Assembly: GCA_037137555.1 (NCBI GenBank)
Contig: JBAXKA010000001.1
Coordinates: forward strand, 1,874 to 65,873
Reading direction: 5' to 3'
DNA: 64,000 nt
From: Candidatus Moraniibacteriota bacterium
GTDB taxonomy: Bacteria; Patescibacteriota; Minisyncoccia; Moranbacterales; UBA2206
How positions within the stretch are numbered: position 1 is the stretch's first letter; each line of letters begins with the position of its first letter. The notes beneath the pieces are model-generated. The model was given only the letters and a program-made list of their open reading frames with translations, did no database searches and was not told the origin of the DNA. This document shows, one piece after another, positions 3,575-28,346 of this stretch. The translations under genes and the position numbers were made by a program.

Positions 3575-4855
3575 TTATATTCTTTTTATATTCGCACCCA
3601 ATTTTTGCAACCGTTCTTCAATTTTTTCATAACCTCTATCAACTTGATAAATTTCTTTGATGGTTGTTTTCCCCTCAGCAATCAGTGCCGCAATAATCAG
3701 TGTTGCGCCAGCACGCAAATCAAAACTAGTAATTATTTTACCTTTTAATTTTGCTGGGCCACTAATCAGCACTCTGTGTGGATCCAAAATTTTTGCCTTG
3801 GCTCCCATTTTTTTCAACTCGCTGATATAATTAAAGCGGCTTTCATATAGCGAGTCATGAATTAGCGTTTCTCCTTCAGCTTGTGTCGCAAGCACACCGA
3901 AAGGCGCTTGCACATCTGATGGAACACCAGGATAAGTTCTCGTATCAATCTTAAAAACAGCTTTTATTTTTTTAGCTGGAATAACTTCGATACTATTTTT
4001 TTCAATTTTAAAATCTGCTCCAAATTCACGCAATTTTTCTAGAACTAAAGCTAAATGTTCCTCTTTGGCGTTTTTAATTTTAATTGCGCTTCCAGTTGTT
4101 ACAGCGAGAATAAGAAAAGTAGCCGCTTCATTAGCATCGGGAATAATAGTATGCGTTGCTTTGTGCATTTTTTTTGTACCAATAATTTCCAGGCTATGCG
4201 TTCCCAGTCCCTTTATTTTTGCACCAAGGGAAATCAAAAACTTTCCTAAATCTTCCACATGCGGTTCGCAAGCACAAGCTTTAATGGTTGTTTTTCCTTC
4301 AAGTGAAGACGCCAATATCATCGCATTCTCCGTAGCCGTTACAGACATTTCTCCCAAAGTAATCCTAGCTGATTTTCTTTTTTGCGCATTAATAACATAG
4401 CCACATTCGTTTTGCAAAATATCCACACCCATCTTACGCAATGCTTCAAAATGTGTGCCAAGTGGACGTGCACCAATCACACAACCACCGGGTCGATAAA
4501 ATTTAAATTTATCAAAACGCGCACTCAAAGCACCCAAAAGTAAAATCGAGGAACGCAACTTTTTTACAGTTTCGGTGTCTATTTTTGCTGGATCAATTTT
4601 TTCATTTTTAATACTAATTTTTCTTTTTCCCAACCATTTGATTTCCGCACCCATGCTAGTCAATATTTCCAACATGCGATAAACATCCTCAATGAGCGGA
4701 ATATTGGAAATAATACATTCCTCTTTTGTCAATAATGTCGCCGCTAAAATTGGGGTTGTCGCATTTTTGGATCCACGCACCTCAATTTCTCCTTGCAATT
4801 TTTTTCCACCAACAATTTCAAATGTTTCCATAATTTTAAGTTTAAAAAAGGCCAC
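3575..4855 (-). CDS. murA: UDP-N-acetylglucosamine 1-carboxyvinyltransferase MurA
   Basis: EIVGGKKLQGEIEVRGSKNA at the N-terminus, about 420 aa and the EPSP-synthase fold pattern. The true start may be the internal Met at 4831 (METFEIVGG). Confidence 0.9.
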   Translation of the reverse strand: MAFFKLKIMETFEIVGGKKLQGEIEVRGSKNATTPILAATLLTKEECIISNIPLIEDVYRMLEILTSMGAEIKWLGKRKISIKNEKIDPAKIDTETVKKLRSSILLLGALSARFDKFKFYRPGGCVIGARPLGTHFEALRKMGVDILQNECGYVINAQKRKSARITLGEMSVTATENAMILASSLEGKTTIKACACEPHVEDLGKFLISLGAKIKGLGTHSLEIIGTKKMHKATHTIIPDANEAATFLILAVTTGSAIKIKNAKEEHLALVLEKLREFGADFKIEKNSIEVIPAKKIKAVFKIDTRTYPGVPSDVQAPFGVLATQAEGETLIHDSLYESRFNYISELKKMGAKAKILDPHRVLISGPAKLKGKIITSFDLRAGATLIIAALIAEGKTTIKEIYQVDRGYEKIEERLQKLGANIKRI

Positions 4856-4904
4856 TTATAAAGTATATTCTATGTGGTATTAAAAATCAAACATTGTGCC
4901 ATAA

Positions 4905-5492
4905 CTAATTTCTAAAAATATTTAAATTATTTTCGTCCAAATCCCATTTAAAAGGATTATTCACAATATAATTACGAATATTATAGAGGGATTTTTCATT
5001 ACAAATAATGTGATCGTGAAATGATTTTTGCCATCCAAAATAGGACAATTTTTTATGGATTATTTTGGTAATGGCAGATTTGAACGATCCAATTATAATA
5101 GGTATTTTTTGATATTGTCGATTTTGTTGGGATTGGGATTGGGATTGTAGGGAACAGGCATGCCTGTTCCCTACGGGTTTCCCTGCGGGTTTCCCTGCGG
5201 GGTTATCGGTAGAATTATTATGGGCGTCATCATTTTTAATTACCAAAATACCATGAACATGATTTGGCATAATAATAAATTCATCTAATACGCAATATGG
5301 AAAATGATTAGGAATTTCTAGCCAACAATTTTTTGCTATCTCTCCATATTCATTTAAATTCATTTTTTCATGTTCAATGTTTCCAAAAAATTCTTCTCTA
5401 TTCTTTGTGCAAATCGTTACAAAATAAAATCCATTCTCAGAATAATTATAATTTTTTAATCTGGTTGGTTTACGGTTTTTTATTTGGGGCAT
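4905..5492 (-). CDS. IS200/REP-associated tyrosine (Y1, HUH) transposase (RAYT-like), carrying an in-frame low-complexity insertion
   Basis: HuH motif HVHGIL and a C-terminal Y-x3-NP-x-KW-like motif (YNIRNYIVNNPFKW). The middle of the ORF (NPAGKPAGKPVGNRHACSLQSQSQSQ) is encoded by a GGGATT microsatellite plus a 26-bp perfect palindrome. Confidence 0.7.
   Translation of the reverse strand: MPQIKNRKPTRLKNYNYSENGFYFVTICTKNREEFFGNIEHEKMNLNEYGEIAKNCWLEIPNHFPYCVLDEFIIMPNHVHGILVIKNDDAHNNSTDNPAGKPAGKPVGNRHACSLQSQSQSQQNRQYQKIPIIIGSFKSAITKIIHKKLSYFGWQKSFHDHIICNEKSLYNIRNYIVNNPFKWDLDENNLNIFRN
5101..5210. repeat. REP-like element copy 1: 28-bp head, (GGGATT)3, 26-bp perfect palindrome TAGGGAACAGGCATGCCTGTTCCCTA, then tandem CGGGTTTCCCTG x2
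   Basis: Read directly from the sequence. Lies inside the RAYT coding region. Near-identical to the reverse complement of 9348-9439. Confidence 0.85.
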
Positions 5493-5515
5493 AATTATTT
5501 GGAAAAAATTTATTG

Positions 5516-5587
5516 TGCCCTCAGTAGGAATCGAACCTACATCTTATCCTTAGGACGGATCTGCTCTATCCATTGAGCTATGAAGGC
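5516..5587 (-). tRNA. tRNA, probably tRNA-Arg (anticodon CCU)
   Basis: Manual fold: acceptor stem GCCTTCA/TGAGGGC, D stem GCTC/GAGC, anticodon loop GTCCTAA, T arm GTAGG-TTCGATT-CCTAC. CCA is not encoded. 72 nt. Confidence 0.55.
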
Positions 5588-5609
5588 CTATTGTAATATT
5601 TTAATTTTG

Positions 5610-5682
5610 TGGACATGAGGAGACTCGAACTCCTTACCTCTTCCATGCCATGGAAGCGCTCTACCAGATGAGCTACACGCCC
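5610..5682 (-). tRNA. tRNA-Ala (anticodon GGC)
   Basis: Manual fold: acceptor GGGCGTG with a G3:U70 pair (the Ala identity element), perfect anticodon stem CTTCC/GGAAG, loop ATGGCAT, T arm AGGAG-TTCGAGT-CTCCT. 73 nt. Confidence 0.8.
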
Positions 5683-5819
5683 GATACTATCAATCACTTT
5701 TCTATCATATCAGCTGTGAATAGTTAGTCAATTTTTTAATTTATCAAATTTTTCCTCGACAGCTTATTTTCTCTGTGCTAGTATATCTATGTTAATAAAA
5801 ACTTAATCAAAAAAAATTT

Positions 5820-6479
5820 ATGAATATCCAGTATTATGGTCATTCTTGTTTTAAGATTTGCTTAAAGCCGGCTGGTCGAGGTCAGAACGAAGTAGTTTTT
5901 TTTATGGATCCTTTTGACAAATCCATCGGTCTTCGTCCACCACAAGGACAAGCGGATTTTGTTTTGGTTTCACATGGTCATCCTGATCATAATAATATTG
6001 AAGCACTGAAAGGCGAACCACGCGTCATTGATTTACCGGGAGAATATTCAGTTAAAGGTGTAAATGTCATTGGCATTTCTTCTTTTCATGACAGTGTGCA
6101 AGGAAAAGAAAAAGGGGCTAATACAATTTTCTTGGTTGATAGCGAAGATATCAAGATTTGTCATTTGGGCGATCTTGGATCTGACTTAGATGAAAAACAA
6201 CTAGAAAAAATTGGCACAGTCAATATTCTGATGGTGCCAATCGGTGGAAAATATACACTGGATTATAAAAAAGCGATTGAAACAATCAAAAAAATTGAAC
6301 CAAACATTATTATTCCGATTCATTTTAAAATGGCTGGCTCGACTGTTGATATCGAAGACGAAAATCAATTCTGTCTTGAAATGGGTTATTGCAAAAAAGA
6401 AAGACCCGCTAAGCTAAATTTGAAAAGCAAAGATTTGGAAGGAAAGAATATGGAAATTATGATTATGGGTATTGAATAG
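5820..6479 (+). CDS. MBL-fold metallo-hydrolase
   Basis: HGHPDH metal-binding motif (VSHGHPDHNN), about 220 aa. Confidence 0.75.
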   Translation: MNIQYYGHSCFKICLKPAGRGQNEVVFFMDPFDKSIGLRPPQGQADFVLVSHGHPDHNNIEALKGEPRVIDLPGEYSVKGVNVIGISSFHDSVQGKEKGANTIFLVDSEDIKICHLGDLGSDLDEKQLEKIGTVNILMVPIGGKYTLDYKKAIETIKKIEPNIIIPIHFKMAGSTVDIEDENQFCLEMGYCKKERPAKLNLKSKDLEGKNMEIMIMGIE

Positions 6480-6493
6480 TTTTTAAAAAAATA

Positions 6494-6787
6494 ATGAGCA
6501 TCCAAAGAAAATTAGAAGAAATTCGCAAGAAACCAGAGCATATCAAAAAACGCTACACCTATATTGCCGTTGCCATTTCCATGTTTTTTATTATACTACT
6601 TTGGTTTTTTTCCATTGCTGATACACTTAAAAAAACTGAATTTACCAAAAAACAAAATGTTTTTGAGGATTTGCAAGTTGAAAAAAAATCACTCAAAGAT
6701 GCCACTGATGATATGAAAAACTCACTGACAGATCTAAATAAAAATCTAAAACAAGCTCCAACTGAAACTAATCAACCCTTAGAATAA
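6494..6787 (+). CDS. small membrane protein, function unknown
   Basis: One predicted TM segment ([19 protein letters not shown]) and a charged C-terminus. Follows the hydrolase gene with a short gap. Confidence 0.4.
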
Positions 6788-6798
6788 AAAATAATATT

Positions 6799-9243
6799 AT
6801 GGAAATGAAAATTGAATTGGAAAACATCCAACCGCGTGAAATAACTGAAGAAATTCAACAATCCTATTTGGATTATGCCATGAGTGTCATTGTTTCTCGT
6901 GCTCTGCCTGATGTGCGTGATGGCATGAAGCCAGTGCATCGTCGCATTCTTTATTCTATGTGGAACACTGGCCTTCGTGCTAATGCAAAATTTAGAAAAT
7001 CTGCGACAGTGGTGGGAGAAGTTTTGGGAAAATATCATCCACATGGTGATGTGGCAGTTTATGATTCAATGGTGCGTATGGCCCAAGATTTTTCTTTGCG
7101 TTATCCCCTCGTCAAAGGTCAAGGAAATTTTGGTTCGATGGATGGAGACTCGGCAGCGGCTTATCGTTACACCGAAGCAAAACTTTCACCAATTGCCGAA
7201 GAGATGCTTACTGATATTGAAAAAAATACAGTTAATTTTGTACCAAATTTTGATGGTCAACATGAAGAGCCGACTGTTTTGCCCGCTAATTTACCCCAAC
7301 TACTCTTAAATGGTTCCATGGGAATTGCCGTTGGAATGGCGACTAACATTCCTCCTCAAAATATTACTGAATTAATTGAAGGGATTGATCATTTAATCGA
7401 TAATCCCAATGCCACAGTAGAAGATCTTTGTGAATTTGTTAAAGGTCCCGATTTTCCAACTGGTGGCATAATTTATAATAAAAAAGATATTATTGAAGCT
7501 TATAGAACTGGTCGTGGAAAAATTCTCACCAGAGCAAAAGCGGAAATCAATGAAACTAAAACTGGTGCATTTCAAATTATTGTAACAGAAATGACCTATG
7601 CCACAAACAAATCAACCATGATTGAAAGAATGGCCGATCTTGTGAAGGAAGGAAAAATTATGGGCATTCGTGATATTCGCGATGAATCCGACAAAGATGG
7701 TGTTCGACTTGTGATTGAATTAAAAAAAGATGCTTATCCTCAAAAAGTGCTCAATAAGCTTTATGATTTAACTGATTTGCAAAAAAATTTCAATGTTAAT
7801 ATGCTCGCCCTTGTTAATGGCATTGAACCAACTGTCCTAAATTTAAAATCAATTTTTGAATATTATATTATTCACAGAAAAGAAGTAATCACTCGTCGCA
7901 CAAAATATGATTTGGAAAAAGCCCGTGATCGTGCCCATATTTTGGAAGGTCTAAAAAAAGCACTTGATCATATTGATGCCGTCATTGAAACAATCAAAAA
8001 ATCCAAAACAAAAGAAGAAGCCCATGTCAATTTGATGAAAAAATTCTTGCTTTCTGACAGACAGACTACGGCCATTCTGGAAATGCGATTGCAAACACTT
8101 GCCGGATTGGAACAAAAAAAGATTGAAGATGAATTGGCTGAAAAATTACGCATCATCGCTGAACTTGAAGCAATCCTAAAAAGTGAAAAGAAAATTCTCG
8201 GCATTGTCAAAAGCGAACTTAATCGTGTGAAGGAAAAATATGGCGACGAAAGAAAAACAAAAATAATTAAATCTGGCGTATCAGAATTTAAGCAAGAAGA
8301 TTTAGTCCCCAACGAAGAAGCAATCATAACGATTTCCAAGGAAGGTTATATTAAAAGAATGAACCCTGCTGTTTATAAAGTGCAAAAACGAGGTGGCAAG
8401 GGCGTGATTGGTGCCACAACCAGAGAGGGTGACGAAGTTGAAAAACTACTTGGTGTTATGACACATGATAATTTATTATTTTTCACTAACAGTGGAAAAG
8501 TTTTTCAAACTAAGTCTTATGAAATTCCAGAATCATCCAGAATTTCCAAAGGACAATCGATTGTTAATTTCTTGCAACTTTCTGGTGAAGAAAAAGTAAC
8601 AGCTATTATTGCTTTCAACAAAGATGATAATTATAAATATCTTTTTATGGCCACCGAGATGGGCACTGTCAAAAAAACTACACTGGAAGAATTTGAAAAT
8701 GTCCGTCGTTCAGGTCTTATTGCTATAAAATTAGACAAGGGTGATGCGCTTCGTTGGGTTAATGCCACAACTGGCACAGATGAAATTGTCATCACAACTT
8801 CACATGGTCAAGCAATTCATTACAAGGAAAGTGATGTTCGCTCTATGGGTCGTGCGGCCACGGGAGTGCGTGGAATTAAATTAAAAAAAGATGATCTTGT
8901 TGTTGGTATGGATGTTTTCTTCAAAGGTCAAAAGGGCAATCAACTTTTAGTCATCACTGAAAATGGTTATGGTAAAAGATCCGATATTAAATATTACAAA
9001 ATTCAAAAACGCGGTGGCTCAGGAATTAAAACAGCAGCGACGACTGCCAAAACAGGAAAGTTAATTGGTGCTAGTATTATCAATGTGGATAATCTTGATG
9101 CAGATTTAATTCTTACTTCCGATAAAGGTCAAATTATTCGTATTCCTCTTGTTAGTGTTTCTATTCTTGGTCGTGCCACACAAGGCGTTCGCGTTATGCG
9201 ACCACAAACTGGCGATAAGGTTAGTGCGATGACGGTTTTGTAA
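6799..9243 (+). CDS. gyrA: DNA gyrase subunit A
   Basis: [26 protein letters not shown], the active-site Tyr region ([11 protein letters not shown]) and C-terminal beta-pinwheel repeats. 814 aa. Confidence 0.95.
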
Positions 9244-9347
9244 AAAAATAAATAGAGATAAGGATCGACATAAACATAATTTGCACGAAAAGAAAAATCT
9301 ACTATCATGCCAAATTATGTTCACGGGTTCTTGATGATTGAAAATAT

Positions 9348-9439
9348 AACCCCGTAATCGTAGGGAACAGGCATGCCTGTTCCCTACAATCCCAATCCCA
9401 ATCCCAATCCCAACAAAATCGACAATATCAAAAAATACC
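9348..9439. repeat. REP-like element copy 2 (inverted relative to copy 1): palindrome, (CAATCC)4, 28-bp tail
   Basis: The reverse complement matches 5101-5210, including the 28-bp segment that in copy 1 is RAYT coding sequence. The CGGGGTTAT flank is shared. Confidence 0.85.
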
Positions 9440-9460
9440 TAATAAATTAACAAAAAAAAT

Positions 9461-10168
9461 ATGCCCAGACCAATTACAACATTGTTTATGCTCACTTCGG
9501 TTGATGGTAAAATTTCAACAGTCAGTAATGACAAATTAGATGTTGATAAAGATTTTCCAAGAATAAAAGGCCTCAAGGAAGGCTTGAAACAATATTATGA
9601 AATTGAACAAGCGACTGATTCACATTCATTGAATTCGGGCAGAGTGTTAGCAAAAGTTGGAGCAAATAAACCACAAAAGAATATTGTAAAACTACCAGTT
9701 AGTTTTTTGATAATTGATAATAAGCCCCACTTGAATTGCACTGGCGTAGATAATTTTCTTAAAAAAAGCAAAAAGCTCTACATCATCACAACAAATAAAG
9801 TGCATCCTGCTTTTCAAAGAAAGACTGCTAATAATTTGGAAATCATCTACTACAAAAACAAAATTGATTTTATTGATTTATTCAGAAAATTAAAACAAGA
9901 ATATGGAATTAGTCGATTAACTATTCAAACGGGAGAAACACTCAACGCAATTTTTTTGAGGAATAAATTGATTGATAAAATTTCACTTGTAATTGCTCCA
10001 GCTTTAATTGGTGGAGAAAATACGCCATCATTGATAGCTGGAAAGTCACTATCTTCTCTCAAGGAGCTTGCCCTGATAAAAGCGTTGAAATTAACCGAGG
10101 TAAAAAAATTAAATGATTCTTATTTAAATTTAAAATACGATGTCATCAATGACACCGAAATCGATTGA
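9461..10168 (+). CDS. dihydrofolate reductase-family protein (RibD C-terminal domain-like reductase)
   Basis: LFMLTSVDGKIS N-terminal motif and C-terminal ISLVIAPALIGGE motif, typical of the RibD_C/DHFR-like fold. Confidence 0.6.
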   Translation: MPRPITTLFMLTSVDGKISTVSNDKLDVDKDFPRIKGLKEGLKQYYEIEQATDSHSLNSGRVLAKVGANKPQKNIVKLPVSFLIIDNKPHLNCTGVDNFLKKSKKLYIITTNKVHPAFQRKTANNLEIIYYKNKIDFIDLFRKLKQEYGISRLTIQTGETLNAIFLRNKLIDKISLVIAPALIGGENTPSLIAGKSLSSLKELALIKALKLTEVKKLNDSYLNLKYDVINDTEID

Positions 10169-10256
10169 TTTTTAAATACACAAACTAAACATTTCCCTTT
10201 TTTTAAAAATAGTGTATACTAAAAATTCGAGTATTATCAATTAATTTTTACGCACT

Positions 10257-11708
10257 ATGTCCACCAATGAAGTTGCTATCAGATTTAATGAAGTTTCTTT
10301 TGAATATTCCCGTGATAAAATCATTCTTGATGATGCTTCTTTTTCTTTGCGTCAAGGAGCAAAAGTAACTTTAATGGGACAAAATGGTGCTGGTAAAAGC
10401 ACGCTATTGGAAATGATCACAGGAGCATTAAAACCAAAATCAGGCACAATTCATGTCGCAAAAAATCTCACTATCGCCTATGCCAAGCAAGTTATTCCTC
10501 GTGACGAATTAGATCTTACGGTGAATGATTTTTTTGCTAAACGCTTTACGGAAAAAATTTATAATCTGACTCCGCGTATTGATAAAGTTTTAAATGTGGT
10601 TAATTTAAAAGCACCGCATGATCGAATTATCAAATCTTTTTCTGGCGGACAACAAGCTCGCTTGCTTCTTGCTTCAGCAATTATTTCTGATCCGGATTTA
10701 TTAATTCTTGATGAACCAACTAACAACCTTGATCCGGCTGGCATTGAGCATTTAACTCAATTTTTAATCAACTCCACAAAAACTTGCTTAGTCATTTCGC
10801 ATGATGCTGATTTTTTAAATTCTTTTACTGATGGCGTTCTCTATTTAGATATTTTTAATCACAAAACCCAACAATATCTCGGCGACTACTATTCTGTTGT
10901 GGAAGAAATTGCCGCGCAAATTGAAAAAGAAAAACGCAAAAATGCTCAATATGAAAAAGAAATTATTGCTAATAAAGAAAAGGCTAATTTTTTTGCAAAC
11001 AAGGGTGGAAAAATGCGACTTGTCGCCAGAAGAATGCGTGACAAGGCAGCGGAAATGGAAGAAGCCAAAGTAGATATTCGAAGAGAAGACAAAGCCATTC
11101 GTCCATTCGAAATACCTTGCCAAGCAGAATTGGGCGGAGAAGTTTTACATATCGATTCTGTTACGATTGTTAAAAATTATGAACCAACGGAAAAAACCGT
11201 CAATGTTTCATTGCGTAAAAATCAGCATCTACTTCTTTCCGGACCAAATGGTATTGGCAAAAGCACCCTACTCGAATCAATTGCCAAAGGAGAAACACTT
11301 AGTGCAAAAATTCTAACTGATGTTCGTGTCGGTTATTATCGCCAAGATTTTTCTACTCTTAATTTTGAAGATACGGTTTATGATTCCCTACTTTCGGTCA
11401 TGAAACTAAAAGACGAAGAAAAAATGCGTTCAGTTGCCTCAGGTTTTTTACTCACAAAAGAATGTGTCTATGCTAAAATCGGCAGTCTTTCTGAAGGTCA
11501 AAAAGGTCTCGTGGCTTTCGCCCAACTCGTTTTGCTTGAGCCGGGACTTTTAATTCTTGACGAGCCAACTAATCACATCAATTTTCGCCATTTACCTATT
11601 ATTGCTAAAGCCTTAGATGAATACACTGGTGCAATGGTGCTCGTTAGTCATGTGCCAGATTTTGTCGCCCAAATTAGAATCGATGAAGTACTTGATCTTG
11701 AAAGATAA
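10257..11708 (+). CDS. ABC ATPase with tandem nucleotide-binding domains (ABC-F-like, no TM domain)
   Basis: Two Walker A motifs (GQNGAGKST, GPNGIGKST), two LSGGQ/LSEGQ signatures, two Walker B (LILDEPTN), linked by a charged region. Confidence 0.8.
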   Translation: MSTNEVAIRFNEVSFEYSRDKIILDDASFSLRQGAKVTLMGQNGAGKSTLLEMITGALKPKSGTIHVAKNLTIAYAKQVIPRDELDLTVNDFFAKRFTEKIYNLTPRIDKVLNVVNLKAPHDRIIKSFSGGQQARLLLASAIISDPDLLILDEPTNNLDPAGIEHLTQFLINSTKTCLVISHDADFLNSFTDGVLYLDIFNHKTQQYLGDYYSVVEEIAAQIEKEKRKNAQYEKEIIANKEKANFFANKGGKMRLVARRMRDKAAEMEEAKVDIRREDKAIRPFEIPCQAELGGEVLHIDSVTIVKNYEPTEKTVNVSLRKNQHLLLSGPNGIGKSTLLESIAKGETLSAKILTDVRVGYYRQDFSTLNFEDTVYDSLLSVMKLKDEEKMRSVASGFLLTKECVYAKIGSLSEGQKGLVAFAQLVLLEPGLLILDEPTNHINFRHLPIIAKALDEYTGAMVLVSHVPDFVAQIRIDEVLDLER

Positions 11709-11744
11709 TTTATTTTATTTTAGTTTTAGTTTAATTTTTTATTT

Positions 11745-12869
11745 ATGGTCTTTTTGCAAATTACTTTTTTTCTCACACTTTTAGTTTTAACGCTTTTTGG
11801 TTCGCATTATTTTTTATATGCATCACTAATTAAATTTTTTCCTTTTTTACATAACTATAAAAAGCTTTTGTTTATTACGCTTTTTTTATTAGCTATTAGT
11901 TTTATTTTGACTTCAATTCTTGCGCATGTGCGTGAAGATTTGGCTACTCGTGCCAGCTATTTACTCTCTGGTTTTTGGCTTGGATTTTTGACCAATCTTG
12001 TTTTGGCTATTTTAATTATTAGTTTTCTTAATTGGCTATTTAAACTAGCTGGTATCAATTTTAATCTCTCACTTATTGCTCTGATTTCTTTTAGTTTAGC
12101 TTTTGTTTTTTCACTTTATGGAAGCTGGAATGCTTTTCAGCCAAGACTGAAAAATATTACAGTTACAATTCCTAATTTACCCGAAAATTGGCAAGACAAG
12201 AAAGTCGTGCAACTCGCAGATGTGCATTTAGGATTAATTTATCGCAAGGATTTTCTGCAAAATATTATTGACCAAATAAATCCCCTCAACCCCGAACTAG
12301 TACTTATTACTGGAGATTTTTTTGATGGCATGGATGGAAAGCTAGATCTTTTAATCTCACCATTAAATAATCTCAAAACTGCTCAAGGAACTTTTTTTGT
12401 CAACGGAAATCATGAAACATATTTGGGCACAGAAAAAACAATTGCCACGCTCGAAAAAAATAAAGTCCAAATTCTTAAAGATCAGGTTGTGGATATTTCC
12501 GGATTAAAACTAATTGGCATTGGTTATCCAGAACGAGATTTAAAAAAAGATATTATTATTACGCTACAAGAATTAAAATCCCAGTTTTTTGGCAAGCCAA
12601 ATATCTTGCTTTATCATTCCCCTACTAACATACACCAATTTGCAGAAAATGGTGTCAATTTACAACTTTCTGGCCACACCCATTTGGGACAAATTTTTCC
12701 TTTTAATCTTATCACGAAACTAATTTATCACGGCTATGATTATGGATTGCACACAATAAACAATTACACAATTTATATTAGTAGTGGTTTGGGTACATGG
12801 GGACCAGCTATGCGCACAAATAGCACTCCAGAAATTGTCGTAATCACATTAAAAAATAAAACCAACTAA
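11745..12869 (+). CDS. membrane-anchored calcineurin-like metallophosphoesterase
   Basis: N-terminal TM helices, then DVHLG, GDFFDG, GNHE, GHTH phosphoesterase motifs. Confidence 0.75.
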   Translation: MVFLQITFFLTLLVLTLFGSHYFLYASLIKFFPFLHNYKKLLFITLFLLAISFILTSILAHVREDLATRASYLLSGFWLGFLTNLVLAILIISFLNWLFKLAGINFNLSLIALISFSLAFVFSLYGSWNAFQPRLKNITVTIPNLPENWQDKKVVQLADVHLGLIYRKDFLQNIIDQINPLNPELVLITGDFFDGMDGKLDLLISPLNNLKTAQGTFFVNGNHETYLGTEKTIATLEKNKVQILKDQVVDISGLKLIGIGYPERDLKKDIIITLQELKSQFFGKPNILLYHSPTNIHQFAENGVNLQLSGHTHLGQIFPFNLITKLIYHGYDYGLHTINNYTIYISSGLGTWGPAMRTNSTPEIVVITLKNKTN

Positions 12870-12883
12870 ACAGGAGGTGTAAA

Positions 12884-13339
12884 ATGAAAAAAATTGTTCT
12901 TTGCATTATTATTCGGCACAGAGAGATTTTGCTTTTGGAATATGAACGGGGATCGCTTATGCTCCCAGGCGGACATATTGAAAAAGAAGAAACTCCAAGT
13001 ATCGCCGCCAGGAGAGAAATTCATGAAGAGCTGGGACTGAAAAATCAGCCCGTTCAAGTCATTGAACTTAAAGATTGGGGAAAGATAAAAGAATACGAAA
13101 AAGTAAGTTATCATCTTTATCTCGCTCATCTGGACAGTTTCGGAAAAGAATTTCAAATGTCTCCTCAAAAAGAAGAAGGCATAAAAAGTTTCATCTGGGT
13201 TAATCCATGGGAATTATTTAGCTCTTGGGAATCCGATGGATTTTGGCGGAATATAAAAATAAGAAATAAGATGACTGAGATCGCCAAAGAAGCCATCGAG
13301 CTTTTTATCAGCCAGCCCATTATTAAAATCATGGTCTAG
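12884..13339 (+). CDS. NUDIX hydrolase
   Basis: Nudix box GGHIEKEETPSIAARREIHEELG. Strong RBS AGGAGG upstream. Locally higher GC than the flanks. Confidence 0.7.
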   Translation: MKKIVLCIIIRHREILLLEYERGSLMLPGGHIEKEETPSIAARREIHEELGLKNQPVQVIELKDWGKIKEYEKVSYHLYLAHLDSFGKEFQMSPQKEEGIKSFIWVNPWELFSSWESDGFWRNIKIRNKMTEIAKEAIELFISQPIIKIMV

Positions 13340-13373
13340 GAAGAGGAGAGATCTATGATAAAAAAACAAAAAA

Positions 13374-13410
13374 ACCGGCCAAAGCTAAACATAGCTTTGT
13401 CGGTTTTATT
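13374..13410 (+). terminator. rho-independent terminator after the NUDIX gene
   Basis: Hairpin CCGGCCAAAGCTA-aaca-TAGCTTTGTCGG followed by a T-run. Confidence 0.6.
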
Positions 13411-13427
13411 TTTTTTAAAAATTTCTT

Positions 13428-14270
13428 GTCATAAAAATATAGCTATGTCATAGTAGCGTTTTCTAGAAATGTCATACCTGCTAAGATATTGAGTTAATCA
13501 TTAAGCTCAATATCAATGTGATCAAAAGCGGAACACAAGGAATTATCCACAAACTAAGAAATAAGACGGGCAACAATAAATTAGAAAATAAACTTTTGGA
13601 AAAAGCCAAAAAACTGCTTAAAAAAAGTATTCTGATTTCGGTCCAACATTAGCAACAGAGAAACTAATGGAACTGAATAAAATCAATTTGGGCGTAACGA
13701 CAATTCGCGAGTTAATGATCGAAGAAAAATATTGGAAACCAAAAGTGAGAAAACAAAATCAAGTCCATAAAGTATATTCCTAATTTCAATCAAAGGTTTG
13801 CAGTTATTCCTACCAAAAAAACTGATTTGCACAAACCACTAACCAAAAATGAAAAAGAAAACCTAGCTAAAATATTTTCCATTCAGTCTAAGCGATAAGT
13901 TAAAAATGATTTCACTATTCAATTTAAAAACACATAGTATCAATTAAAAGAAATTCAACTCACAACCGTTTATCGCAGAGATGAAATTTTGATTGAAGAA
14001 AGATTAGACAATTCGATTCATCTAAGCAAAAAAGCTCAGTATCTTAATTTTGAAAAGTTACCCCAAAGACCTGAAAAAGTTAAAATGAAACTGCTGGCTA
14101 TTACTCCACAAAAAACTTCATGAATACCACCGATCAATCATCCTTGGAGAGTGAGAATGGCAGCTCAATTTAAGCAAAAACAATTAGCCCATAATTCTCT
14201 TGTTTCGCAAGTATGACATTTTAAAAAAACGCGGGGGTATGACATTTCTATATAATTTTGACATACGGAA
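13428..14270 (+). mobile_element. degraded IS element (ISNCY/ISPlu15-like transposase remnant) with terminal inverted repeats
   Basis: A frame-broken translation gives FGPTLATEKLMELNKINLGVTTIRELMIEEKYWKPKVRKQNQVHK, which resembles the N-terminal part of ISNCY-family transposases; several stops and frameshifts follow. Ends: ...TAGAAATGTCATACC (13466-13480) and GGTATGACATTTCTA (14237-14251) are perfect inverted 15-mers. Confidence 0.55.
13495..13800 (+). pseudogene. transposase pseudogene fragment (ISNCY-like N-terminal region)
   Basis: Same evidence as the mobile element above. No intact ORF longer than about 40 codons. Confidence 0.5.
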
Positions 14271-14375
14271 CTAATTATTGACAATTTCTTATATATAATC
14301 TATCCTGATTTCCATTAGCATTTGTATGCTAATAATTGTTCATTAACATTTTTGATATCGAAAGGAAAGCCCACT

Positions 14376-16013
14376 ATGAGAAAAACTATTTTTGGCACGA
14401 TTCTAATTTGTTTTTTGTCTTTATTATTTGTTGGTTCGTTAATGGCAACCGCTCCCCCAGTATTTATTTTGGGGAATATTTTAGTTGATATTCGAGAAAA
14501 TACTTGCAGACCAATTCATGGTCTGGGCATATCTGGACTGGAATATGGGATTCCGCATGTTGATAATCTCATATGTCCGGCAAGATACCCTGGAACAGCG
14601 GGTACTGATTATTTTGTTCCGAGCTCATCACAGTTTCAATCTGCCAAAAGCCTCGGATCCAGAGTGGTCAGACTGCCCTTTGATCTCGGACGCTTAGTCC
14701 CAGGCTCATTGAACATAAATTATGTCCCTGGCAAGGACATTGTGTTCGATCAGGTTTACCTGGGATATTTAAGACAATGCCTAGGGATGGCACAAGATTA
14801 CGATCAACTGCTAATCCTGGACATGCATAATTATCTATACTACATTGATGATTATGCGAAAAAAATATTCTTGATTAATGATTCATTGATTCATCGAGAA
14901 CTATTAAATCAAACATGGACACAGCTCGTGCAGGAGTTTGCAAATAGTCCTGCATTGTTTGGTTATGAAATTATGAACGAACCAAATAAAACCTCCCATG
15001 AATCAAATTGGCTGTCTATTGCCCAATCGGCAATAAATAGAATCAGAGAGGTTGATTCTGACCACTTTGTTTTCGTCAACGGAAAAACATTCAGCAGTGC
15101 TGGCGGATGGCTGAATGCTGAAAATGACAATCTGGAAAAATTAACCGATACAGCAAGCAAACTGGTTTTTACTCCCCATCTATATGCCGATTCCAATTAT
15201 AATGGAAAATACGATGGGGAGATAGACGATTATCCACCAGACGGGTGGAAAAGCGAACTCTATCGATTGGCCTGGGGCGCAATTAAATGGTCACGGGAAT
15301 ACAACAAGCCACTACTTTTTGGCGAAGTTGGCTTCCTGACAAAAACTGATGCGTGGGATATTGTTTTCAAAGAACTCCTGCGTGAATATTTAATGCTTCA
15401 TAATGTAGGAATAATTCTGTGGGCATTAGAACCAGAAGATATTCCTCATCAAGATACATACATTCTTGGCGAGAGCAAGGCCATCGCCAAAACATTTGCA
15501 GAATACTCCACCAAAAAAATAAACTTTCAAAATAGAAATGGTGGGGATTACATTTTCCACAATAACCTCCAAAATGGTTACCAGGTTTATGCCTGGGAAG
15601 GAGTGGCGTCTAGAATACTAGAAGCTGGTGGCTTGGACAATAGTCCAAGTCTAAGCATACACTTCAATGGCAATTGGAGTGATGGCTTTGACATAGCCAG
15701 CAAAAATATCAAAGATGAACACTCTGACTTTGATATTAGAGGCTCCTTGAATGTTTCCTTTTATTACAAAGGGGAAGCGAGTCTCCGAACGAGTTTTTGT
15801 GACGAAAGCATTTCTGGTTGTGGACAAATCATTGTTACACCCAGACAAGCAGAACTCACAAAGATAGAAATTCCAATCACACAACAAATGCTCCCATCTA
15901 GTGGCAAATTTGATCGCATCAAATTTCAAACTGGCGATGGAGCTTTTGTCGGGGATATTATCCTCGATGAAATAATATTAACACCCTGCATTCAAAAAAG
16001 AACGCAGGGTTGA
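14376..16013 (+). CDS. secreted glycoside hydrolase family 5 (cellulase/mannanase-like)
   Basis: Signal peptide/TM (MRKTIFGTILICFLSLLFVGSLMA). The GH5 catalytic acid/base motif FGYEIMNEP and the nucleophile region (FGEVG). Start moved to the Met at 14376, which has a good RBS. Higher GC than the genome background. Confidence 0.8.
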   Translation: MRKTIFGTILICFLSLLFVGSLMATAPPVFILGNILVDIRENTCRPIHGLGISGLEYGIPHVDNLICPARYPGTAGTDYFVPSSSQFQSAKSLGSRVVRLPFDLGRLVPGSLNINYVPGKDIVFDQVYLGYLRQCLGMAQDYDQLLILDMHNYLYYIDDYAKKIFLINDSLIHRELLNQTWTQLVQEFANSPALFGYEIMNEPNKTSHESNWLSIAQSAINRIREVDSDHFVFVNGKTFSSAGGWLNAENDNLEKLTDTASKLVFTPHLYADSNYNGKYDGEIDDYPPDGWKSELYRLAWGAIKWSREYNKPLLFGEVGFLTKTDAWDIVFKELLREYLMLHNVGIILWALEPEDIPHQDTYILGESKAIAKTFAEYSTKKINFQNRNGGDYIFHNNLQNGYQVYAWEGVASRILEAGGLDNSPSLSIHFNGNWSDGFDIASKNIKDEHSDFDIRGSLNVSFYYKGEASLRTSFCDESISGCGQIIVTPRQAELTKIEIPITQQMLPSSGKFDRIKFQTGDGAFVGDIILDEIILTPCIQKRTQG

Positions 16014-27752: not shown

Positions 27753-28292
27753 ATGAAAAATTTAGTAGCAGTATTTTTTTGTTTGTTGGCAATGGTATTT
27801 GTTCCAGCTTTTGCTGGATCAAGTGAAAATCAAATGTGGGTCAGCACCCACAATTACTCCTACACCCAAATGGAAATGCCCTCAGGCATTTCCATGACAG
27901 CGGAAATGACCGCTACGGAATTTGTGATGACTATTCGTGGTGTGGATAGTCTCACGACTTACTTAAGGTTGAATTTGCCAACCGGAACTTCGTCAGTGGC
28001 ATCTCCCGGAGGTCCGCAAACGATCGCTAGGCGCTACGGTTATATCGACGCAGCAGGAAAGTTTAAAAAAAATTCCGCAGGAGATTGGGAAATCTCCGTG
28101 CCGAAAGTAGTGTTATGCCAAGACAAATCTATCAATGCTTTCTTTCCCGCATTGATGATGTATGATGAAAAAAATCCATCTCAGCAAACGGAGGTGGAAT
28201 TGTATCCCAACTCGGAATATTTTAAGTTGGGCAATGGCCTGAAGACTGGCATCGTAAATCATGGCATGGCCATGATGGTCGATTGCCAGTAA
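27753..28292 (+). CDS. secreted hypothetical protein
   Basis: Signal peptide MKNLVAVFFCLLAMVFVPAFA. RBS AAGGAG upstream. Followed by a strong terminator. Confidence 0.45.
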   Translation: MKNLVAVFFCLLAMVFVPAFAGSSENQMWVSTHNYSYTQMEMPSGISMTAEMTATEFVMTIRGVDSLTTYLRLNLPTGTSSVASPGGPQTIARRYGYIDAAGKFKKNSAGDWEISVPKVVLCQDKSINAFFPALMMYDEKNPSQQTEVELYPNSEYFKLGNGLKTGIVNHGMAMMVDCQ

Positions 28293-28308: not shown

Positions 28309-28346
28309 CCGCCTGACATAAATTTTATGTCAGGCGGTTTTTTATT
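28309..28346 (+). terminator. rho-independent terminator
   Basis: CCGCCTGACATAAATTTTATGTCAGGCGG followed by TTTTTTATT. Confidence 0.8.

Follow-up and report, generated by a model that had tools for sequence, protein, structure and literature searches.

Within a 64,000-nucleotide stretch of contig JBAXKA010000001.1 (assembly GCA_037137555.1) from a Candidatus Moraniibacteriota bacterium, called the window throughout, a palindrome of the repetitive extragenic palindrome (REP) type lies in frame inside a gene for a REP-associated tyrosine transposase (RAYT). Our analysis points to a RAYT of TnpA_REP subclass 2.4 that carries its REP within its own coding region, to the remnant of a second RAYT gene as the inverted partner, and to an inversion of the 4.2-kb block that the two REPs bound. 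We consider this overall explanation likely. The in-frame REP has already been published as the hallmark of subclass 2.4, and this core finding is thus known.

A perfect palindrome with two inverted copies

The palindrome GTAGGGAACAGGCATGCCTGTTCCCTAC is perfect over 28 bp, and its two occurrences, 5147-5174 and 9360-9387, are the only ones in the window. It reads GTAG-GGAACAGGCATGCCTGTTCC-CTAC. The first-pass annotation of this DNA, every element of which is present at most a few bases from where it had been placed, gave a perfect palindrome of 26 bp. That 26-nt pattern (TAGGGAACAGGCATGCCTGTTCCCTA) is matched exactly at 5148-5173 and 9361-9386, the only sites in the window even with up to three mismatches allowed, and the GTAG...CTAC foot extends it to the true perfect length of 28 bp. 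None of 100 dinucleotide-preserving shuffles matched the pattern, and a single other palindrome within the 64 kb has arms as long as these. Folding predictions for single-stranded DNA give both copies a hairpin whose stem is 12 bp long; an 84-nt stretch around copy 1 folds at -17.9 kcal/mol (z = -4.8 relative to shuffles), and an 81-nt stretch around copy 2 has z = -6.9. The palindromes and the short repeats beside them are as follows.

5147-5174, unstranded: REP copy 1, a 'double-foot' palindrome with the in-frame reading VGNRHACSLQ
5127-5147 (5127-5146 outside the REP): hexamer microsatellite of 3.5 units, GGGATT (TTGGGA) on the plus strand and CAATCC on the gene strand, encoding SQSQSQ
5167-5201 (5175-5201 outside the REP): 12-mer tandem of CAGGGAAACCCG on the gene strand, 2.9 copies, encoding AGKPAGKP
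9360-9387, unstranded: REP copy 2, the identical 28-bp palindrome, followed by 4.5 CAATCC units
9387-9413: the 4.5 CAATCC hexamers beside copy 2

The 12-mer units duplicate, in degenerate form, the foot and arm at the 5' side of the REP, and analogous arm duplications are seen in homologues. The two copies are inverted relative to each other, with one arm pair of 52 nt at 98% identity (5096-5147 and 9393-9444), one of 49 nt at 100% (5127-5175 and 9359-9407), which is the longest exact repeat, and a further pair of 55 nt at 76% (5232-5286 and 9291-9345), missing from the first-pass annotation, that corresponds to the region coding for the HUH motif. Copy 2 had been described as a near-exact reverse complement of copy 1; the inverted orientation holds, but the near-exact match covers only about 80 nt, since copy 2 is without 18 nt of the 12-mer tandem and without a 25-nt stretch.

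A terminator or other RNA element is a less likely reading of the hairpin: it has no T-run, it lies inside a coding sequence, and its perfect central symmetry and GTAG foot match those of REPs. Two further long palindromes were seen in the window, ATGGAAATGCCCTCAGGCATTTCCAT (27870-27895) and CCGCCTGACATAAATTTTATGTCAGGCGG (28309-28337), the latter directly downstream of the open reading frame (ORF) 27753-28292.

The RAYT gene

Copy 1 lies in frame in the ORF 4905-5492 on the minus strand and contributes the stretch ...NPAGKPAGKPVGNRHACSLQSQSQSQ... to its product. The features of this gene are listed here.

4905-5492, minus strand: predicted intact RAYT/TnpA_REP gene of subclass 2.4, 195 aa
5253-5261, minus strand: HUH motif H78-V-H80, within N77-H78-V79-H80
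Residues W154-Q155: W motif, present
4953-4970, minus strand: catalytic Tyr motif, Y175-IVNNP
5112-5234, minus strand: variable loop, residues ~87-127, between the HUH strand and the next helix, encoded by the REP and the micro-repeats

The ORF matches the NCBIfam model NF047646 (REP_Tyr_transpos) with E = 4.9e-16 and 58.9 bits, below the 80-bit cutoff of that model, and Pfam PF01797 (Y1_Tnp) with 14.1 bits, below the gathering threshold of 23 bits. A Pfam scan of the ORF at default thresholds gave no match; the subthreshold matches come from a relaxed scan and from NCBIfam. A database search returned 2120 homologues, many of them annotated as RayT and many with a precomputed PF01797 match, and the identical protein is MEI7425300.1 at NCBI (a Candidatus Moraniibacteriota metagenome-assembled genome, MAG). 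In an alignment of 38 homologues, P76, N77, H78, and W154-Q155 are invariant, and H80, Y175, I176, and N179 are nearly so. A profile built from these 38 sequences found a single match in the Protein Data Bank (PDB), the E. coli TnpA_REP structure 4ER8, at a marginal E = 0.002.

The AlphaFold2 model of the protein has a mean predicted local distance difference test (pLDDT) score of 80 and a predicted TM (pTM) score of 0.73, with pLDDT above 90 in the core. Foldseek returned 30 matches to this model at E <= 0.001, and every one is a Y1 HUH transposase or TnpA_REP 4ER8 (TMq 0.51); they include ISDra2, IS608, IS200, a Sulfolobus tokodaii transposase, and the putative transposase DR_0177. The loop at residues ~87-127 has pLDDT values of 43-57 and no secondary structure in the model, and its length differs among the homologues in the gapped alignment. 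Because of the family match, the conserved motifs, and the AlphaFold2 and Foldseek results, we read the ORF as an intact, nondecaying gene for a RAYT-type Y1 HUH enzyme, probably of subclass 2.4 (RAYT group 4). The first-pass annotation was therefore right to call the ORF RAYT-type and to suppose that a REP can be tolerated in frame, the REP sitting in a loop that is predicted to be disordered. Its suggestion that the gene is decaying does not agree with the state of the HUH, WQ, and Y motifs, all of which four strains have in intact form.

Conservation of the in-frame REP across the RAYT family

We fetched 80 genomic loci of RAYT homologues, from Omnitrophota, Patescibacteria, Bacteroidota, Planctomycetia, Thermodesulfobacteriota, Cyanobacteria, Gammaproteobacteria, and others, parsed 65 genes, and searched the stretch from the HUH to the WQ motif for palindromes. 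In 49 of the 65 genes this stretch contains a perfect palindrome whose arms are 10 nt or longer, against a mean longest arm of 5.3 nt in equal-sized windows from the same loci; some homologues are without the palindromic segment. The hairpins have the outer stem and foot GTAGGGAC...GTCCCTAC in common, while the inner stem varies by paired changes. A GT[AG]G foot is present in 34 of these hairpins; the reading frame is GTA-GGG in 29 of them and xGT-AGG in 5, and the remaining frame would hold TAG. Identical DNA, GTAGGGACAGGTCGCGACCTGTCCCTAC, is translated as VGTGRDLSLR in one locus (L016) and as RRDRSRPVPT or CRDRSRPVPT in two others (L061 and L069). The peptide VGNRHACSLQ of the window stands at the same position in aligned homologues of other phyla, and further homologues have loop peptides such as GNADLRSLQ, GNKNFCSLQ, and GTGLKPVPT.

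The same palindromes also occur outside the coding region, flanking the RAYT gene in many of the homologous loci. In 16 of 25 loci, the internal REP agrees with a flanking REP of its own locus to within 1 mismatch per 10 nt, whereas REPs of different loci differ by a mean of 5.2 mismatches. The GTAG foot of the window palindrome is of the same kind as that of these flanking REPs, which bears out its annotation as a REP. No common synteny was found around the RAYT homologues in the 80 loci, nor any extra RAYT fragments or inverted pairs except for one tandem pair in L030. Because the position is conserved, the DNA is read in two frames, the hairpin matches the flanking REPs, and the loop is disordered in the model, we conclude that the constraint acts on the DNA: the hairpin is the REP of its RAYT lineage, and selection bears on the hairpin and not on the peptide, the protein merely tolerating it in a surface loop.

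Two other explanations of the segment can be weighed against these data. One holds that it is an ancestral protein segment under selection for the peptide VGNRHACSLQ, with the palindrome incidental, and the occurrence of this decapeptide in many homologues of differing phyla speaks for it. However, other homologues have different peptides that all come from perfect palindromes with the same foot, the internal sequence follows the extragenic REPs of its own genome, and the segment is predicted to be disordered and is absent from some homologues; the use of the same DNA in two frames already contradicts this reading, which we hold to be extremely improbable. The other explanation, a recent one-off insertion of a REP into this gene or a RAYT gene in decay, draws on the micro-repeats and low-complexity sequence within the coding region and on the dead paralogue close by, but the REP keeps its position from phylum to phylum, the catalytic motifs are all intact, the core is modeled with high confidence, and four strain alleles vary solely in the number of in-frame repeats. 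We judge it very unlikely, and the one-off self-insertion that had been proposed for this gene gives way to a family-wide hallmark of TnpA_REP subclass 2.4.

Copy 2 as the remnant of a second RAYT gene

The alignment between the two copies continues beyond the REP through the HUH codons, and the DNA around copy 2 has the following reading.

9291-9444, plus strand: remnant of a second, diverged RAYT gene, ~150 bp, truncated on both sides, with in-frame stops

Its translation is KSTIMPNYVHGFLMIENITP*S* (also written MPNYVHGFLMIEN..., asterisks being stop codons), then the REP, then ...NKIDNIKKYL. A tblastn search of the window found the RAYT gene and this remnant only. Because of the continued alignment, the stop codons, and the tblastn result, copy 2 is a ~150-bp remnant of a second RAYT gene and no free REP element, and the 'twin' of the first-pass annotation is best described in this way. 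The identity between remnant and gene is mosaic, at 98-100% near the REP and 76% over 55 nt in the HUH region, which indicates that the REP-proximal part was later homogenized with copy 1, possibly by gene conversion. The outer edge of the remnant coincides with the point, exactly 9440, at which synteny with a RAYT-free strain of the same species resumes.

Two orientations of the block between the REPs among assembled contigs

The inverted pair brackets two tRNA genes, a metallo-beta-lactamase (MBL) hydrolase gene, and gyrA, as had been annotated, and in addition a 97-aa ORF.

5515-5587, minus strand: tRNA-Arg
5609-5682, minus strand: tRNA-Ala
5820-6479, plus strand: MBL hydrolase gene
6494-6787, plus strand: 97-aa ORF
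6799-9243, plus strand: gyrA
5175-9359, unstranded: segment found inverted on a contig of a near-identical strain, comprising two thirds of the RAYT from its N terminus, both tRNAs, the MBL gene, the 97-aa ORF, gyrA, and the HUH part of the remnant

The list of RAYT homologues contains a 124-aa protein with 99% identity to the N-terminal two thirds of the RAYT, encoded on a contig (L081, ENA ERZ27300181) that is ~97% identical to the window. Positions 1-4305 of L081 align with 9391 down to 5091 of the window, and positions 4216-7762 align with 9359-12893. The block between the REPs is flipped in this contig, so that the RAYT gene is split and its N-terminal part faces the gene for a RibD_C-domain protein. 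The first-pass annotation had predicted that recombination between the copies would invert the block, and its flipped form is thus found in a ~97% identical strain, on a single contig. L083, an independent assembly, has the order of the window at 100% identity over 11.7 kb.

We call the strain behind L081 strain B; it is also represented by L085, L168, L169, and L170. L085 (JGI Ga0194058) has the window order at the first junction, with murA, an intact 209-aa RAYT, the tRNAs, the MBL gene, and gyrA, and differs from L081 by 1 base in 4185 nt. L168, L169, and L170 have the window order at the second junction, with gyrA, the remnant, and RibD_C. L169 and L170 match L081 at 100% on both sides in the opposite orientation, and their alignments to L081 overlap in 33 nt only, the palindrome and a few flanking bases; L168 differs from L081 at 5 of 3783 nt in the inverted block. 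Strain B contigs that are identical on both sides thus come in either orientation, from differing samples or assemblies, with the flipped form on one contig. Copy 1 has the 12-mer tandem on its inner side, and copy 2 has a fourth, variant hexamer on its outer side; as structural markers, these place the exchange between them, within <=~49 bp that include the palindrome. We take the inversion of the block between the REP copies in strain B to be probably real.

As had been noted from the sequence, gyrA lies opposite to most of its neighbors: it is on the plus strand, within a 10-kb plus-strand island (5820-16013), and the majority of the large ORFs in the window are on the minus strand. In L081, gyrA is flipped relative to the window. 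Comparison with relatives did not reveal the ancestral orientation, because the more distant ones share no more than the MBL-97aa-gyrA operon, set between different flanks: 80 gyrA-anchored metagenome loci keep these three genes, and the loci with gyrA at 95% identity or less have unrelated flanks and no RAYT. GC skew was not decisive on orientation. Look-ups of the exact products of the window's RibD_C and gyrA genes gave no match. The reciprocal flipped junction (murA, RAYT C terminus, REP, gyrA) was not recovered, the Logan contigs ending at the repeat.

The RAYT gene has murA and tRNA-Arg as its neighbors. Its start codon is 22 nt from tRNA-Arg (5493-5514), with no promoter-sized gap, and the gene may be cotranscribed with the tRNA-Ala/tRNA-Arg unit, in which case the 124-aa truncated product could still be expressed in the flipped orientation. 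On the other side of the block, the RibD_C-domain protein (9461-10168) shares 72-74% identity with Labilibaculum proteins and 71-84% with proteins annotated in MAGs labeled Nanoarchaeota, Woesearchaeota, or 'archaeon', which suggests that its gene is horizontally mobile or that contigs were misbinned. A NUDIX-like gene at 12884-13339 is also found in the RAYT-free strain; window and strain B (L081) diverge fully past 12893. The window continues with ~1 kb of stop-riddled ORF fragments (13340-14320), resembling by eye a degraded transposase, and with the gene for a large secreted protein (14322-16013).

Strain variation and rearrangement at the locus

The number of repeats in the coding loop differs between strains.

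Window: 2 12-mer units, 3 hexamers, RAYT of 195 aa
Strain B (L085 960-1030): 2 12-mer units, 10 hexamers, RAYT of 209 aa
Strain D (L174 6250-6460): 1 12-mer unit, 9 hexamers, RAYT of 203 aa

A further contig has an allele of 207 aa, and every allele (195, 203, 207, and 209 aa) is in frame, the coding loop holding a hypervariable microsatellite. In strain D (L174 10420-10700, GCA_964482625.1), a 640-bp deletion corresponding to window 9433-10076 has brought the end of the RAYT remnant directly up against the final 30 codons of RibD_C, the join lying at a short A-rich microhomology.

The RAYT-free strain belongs to the same species (~95-97% identity; L172, L175, L176, and L181-L190) and has neither RAYT copies nor the palindrome. 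Its tRNA-Arg to gyrA block (window 5513-9242) is in another context, between a YdjC gene and homologues of window 52.67-55.6 kb (edge 52667), and its RibD_C is a pseudogene in pieces of 88 and 45 aa. Since its synteny with the window breaks and resumes exactly at the outer RAYT edges, ~4890 and 9439/9440, both RAYT copies lie on rearrangement breakpoints. Gene order is fluid throughout this lineage.

Other repeats are found at related places. In the RAYT-free strain, a different repeated element with two direct GCTCATGTTGCGTT repeats abuts murA at the position of the RAYT in the window (L181 1-125); an identical 125-nt inverted copy lies at a contig end (L172 19043-19167), where six assemblies break. 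Downstream of gyrA, at a distance of a few kb, relatives with gyrA 75-95% identical (L086-L094, L100, and L102) have loose arrays of another palindrome, also perfect, with the sequence (A)ATTGTTCCACGTGGAACAAT(T), for example at L086 7366-8068 and L093 9142-10258; this palindrome is absent from the 64-kb window with two mismatches allowed.

A possible mechanism and its alternatives

The anatomy of the locus, its family membership, the conserved in-frame REP, the local instability, and the presence of both orientations among the contigs could be connected by the following course of events. Slippage at the hairpin would produce in-frame duplications of parts of the arm (the 12-mers and hexamers) close to the REP, in numbers that vary between strains. 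A second, diverged RAYT gene would once have stood between gyrA and the RibD_C gene, of which ~150 bp around the REP are left, inverted; the part near its REP would have been homogenized with copy 1 by gene conversion. Exchange between the inverted REP blocks, within <=~49 bp of identity around the palindrome, would then flip the 4.2-kb block. The window would represent the 'intact RAYT' orientation, and the flip would split the gene, leaving a 124-aa HUH-only product, and turn round gyrA, the MBL gene, and the two tRNA genes. As the route of exchange we favor short-homology recombination stimulated by the palindrome, together with gene conversion.

Several observations weigh against this explanation. 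The scores of the RAYT against both family models are below their cutoffs, as given above, and no REP flanks the gene within the window, unlike in a classical REPtron. A perfect identity of ~49 bp is short for RecA-type recombination. The flipped orientation occurs in L081 alone, a single metagenome contig, whose reciprocal junction stops 4 nt past the palindrome; and L168, a sibling contig assembled by MEGAHIT, is visibly chimeric, its positions 1-243 being foreign high-GC DNA joined within tRNA-Ala. Given this sibling, L081 could be an assembly error as well. There would then be no inversion, L081 being a chimera that jumps between the repeat copies of a static locus with one intact gene and one remnant, and all other contigs of strains A, B, and D are indeed in the window order. 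Against a chimera, the longest exact repeat of 49 nt is far below the final k of 141, so that the spanning k-mers should be read-derived; the four flanks come from the same genome at equal depth, where pruning of tips or of low-depth paths is unlikely to make such a join; and the markers on either side of the junction fit a reciprocal exchange exactly. We give the chimera a minor but appreciable probability.

If the inversion is real, it might be catalyzed by the RAYT itself, through cleavage and rejoining at the feet of the two double-foot REPs, as a self-inactivating switch. The exchange is confined to <=~49 bp centered on the REP, contigs identical on both sides with orientation alone differing suggest a fast process, the palindromic REP offers the same hairpin on both strands, and in vitro the TnpA_REP of E. 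coli cuts single-stranded REPs and carries out strand transfer (PMC8266576). However, Y1 enzymes act on one strand, and two sites on the same strand would lead more readily to excision than to inversion; we know of no RAYT-mediated rearrangement in vivo, and the homogenization near the REP resembles ordinary gene conversion. RAYT catalysis is, in our estimate, rather unlikely. That the RAYT inverts the block by means of its own REP and the decoy REP of its dead paralogue, as a self-operated ON/OFF switch of a domesticated HUH transposase, we regard as unlikely. A composite mobile element, in which the two RAYT/REP copies carried tRNA-Arg, tRNA-Ala, the MBL gene, and gyrA to this place, would agree with the different context of the block in the RAYT-free strain and with the loss of synteny at the outer RAYT edges. 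However, that strain, in which murA and RibD_C lie apart, offers no empty site, no target duplications are found at the outer flanks, one end is a 150-bp dead remnant, all relatives keep MBL-97aa-gyrA as an operon, without a RAYT and between flanks that vary, and gene order is fluid in the lineage anyway. We rejected a composite transposon on the dead end, the missing target-site duplication, and the missing empty site, and the idea of the first-pass annotation that the pair behaves as a composite element, for which there is no positive support, is quite unlikely to be correct.

The preferred explanation, a subclass 2.4 RAYT with an in-gene REP and recombination between this REP and that of the remnant, would make the locus a minimal natural test case, in a tiny genome of the candidate phyla radiation (CPR), for the spread of REPs and the role of RAYTs in cells. 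The only nearby substrates of the apparently intact enzyme gene would be its own in-frame hairpin and one decoy copy. The repeat-number alleles, the REP-adjacent deletion, and the candidate inversion single out the hairpin as a focus of ongoing DNA instability. With the inversion confirmed in reads, the ratio of the two orientations with and without the catalytic Tyr would be a simple in vivo assay of RAYT action; without such confirmation, the locus is an ordinary additional case of subclass 2.4. Should the RAYT turn out to catalyze the inversion, this would be the first natural in vivo footprint of RAYT-mediated DNA rearrangement, with the reorientation of gyrA and two tRNA genes relative to replication as a side effect.

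Comparison with known systems

We know of no experimental work and no biochemistry on subclass 2.4. Quentin, Siguier, Chandler, and Fichant (2018, BMC Genomics 19:475; PMC6006769) defined it among the TnpA_Y1 proteins as corresponding to RAYT group 4 of Bertels et al. 2017. Its members have NH[IFV]H, WQ, and YIxNNP as their motifs and an insertion of variable length and sequence behind the HuH strand; short DNA repeats make their length heterogeneous, and their taxonomic distribution is scattered. Unique to the subclass is a 'double-foot' GTAG REP that stands in frame between HuH and Tyr motifs, with a 5' GT[AG]G foot and a 3' C[TC]AC foot (PMC6006769). The RAYT of the window has NHVH, WQ, and YIVNNP, a variable post-HuH insertion built from short repeats, and an in-frame double-foot REP. 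It differs in its host, a Patescibacteria/CPR bacterium; in the flanking REPs, which are expected for the subclass and are present in many homologous loci but absent in the window; in the inverted truncated paralogue with a second REP copy; and in the inversion bounded by the two copies, inversions being unmentioned in PMC6006769.

The E. coli TnpA_REP with its REPs and bacterial interspersed mosaic elements (BIMEs), the 'REPtron', belongs to subclass 2.2 (PDB 4ER8; PMC3333891, PMC3479197, PMC8266576), and the enzyme recognizes REP hairpins in single-stranded form, cutting at C|T 5' or 3' of the hairpin and rejoining the DNA in vitro (PMC8266576). The Y1 HUH fold and the GTAG tetranucleotide at the foot of the hairpin are common to both systems, and the sequence similarity of 4ER8 to the window RAYT is marginal. 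Unlike the REP in the window, those of E. coli are extragenic, imperfect (bulged), and single-footed, with hundreds of copies, and flank the gene. GTAG REPs that lie in frame in coding regions and are tolerated there were described by Di Nocera, De Gregorio, and Rocco (2013, BMC Genomics 14:522; PMC3733652); these are scattered, lineage-specific, and in other genes (uvrA, recB, dnaE, and others), whereas the host gene in the window is that of the REP's own enzyme and the position is conserved family-wide. The TnpA proteins of IS200/IS605 insertion sequences (IS) likewise have a Y1 HUH fold and recognize subterminal hairpins, but there the hairpins are placed outside tnpA, at either end of the element, which moves as one piece, whereas the RAYT of the window is single-copy and nonsyntenic between genomes, with an internal hairpin.

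In repeat-mediated inversions (between IS or rRNA copies) and in Hin/Gin-type invertons, a segment bounded by inverted repeats occurs in two orientations, one of which disrupts a gene. The segment in the window is similar in that it lies between inverted repeats and is seen in two orientations among the contigs, one splitting the RAYT gene. No serine or tyrosine invertase gene was identified in the segment and its flanks, which contain the RAYT, two tRNAs, the MBL hydrolase, the 97-aa ORF (not family-scanned, with no recorded Pfam match), gyrA, the RibD_C protein, and murA. The repeats here have ~49 bp of perfect identity, or ~107 bp with gaps, and differ from those of invertons in that the repeat would be the hairpin substrate of the HUH enzyme whose gene is split. 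A literature search for REP- or RAYT-bounded inversions found nothing specific. The CPR host, the dead paralogue as an inverted partner, and the probable strain-level inversion that splits the RAYT gene are what this locus adds to the described members of subclass 2.4.

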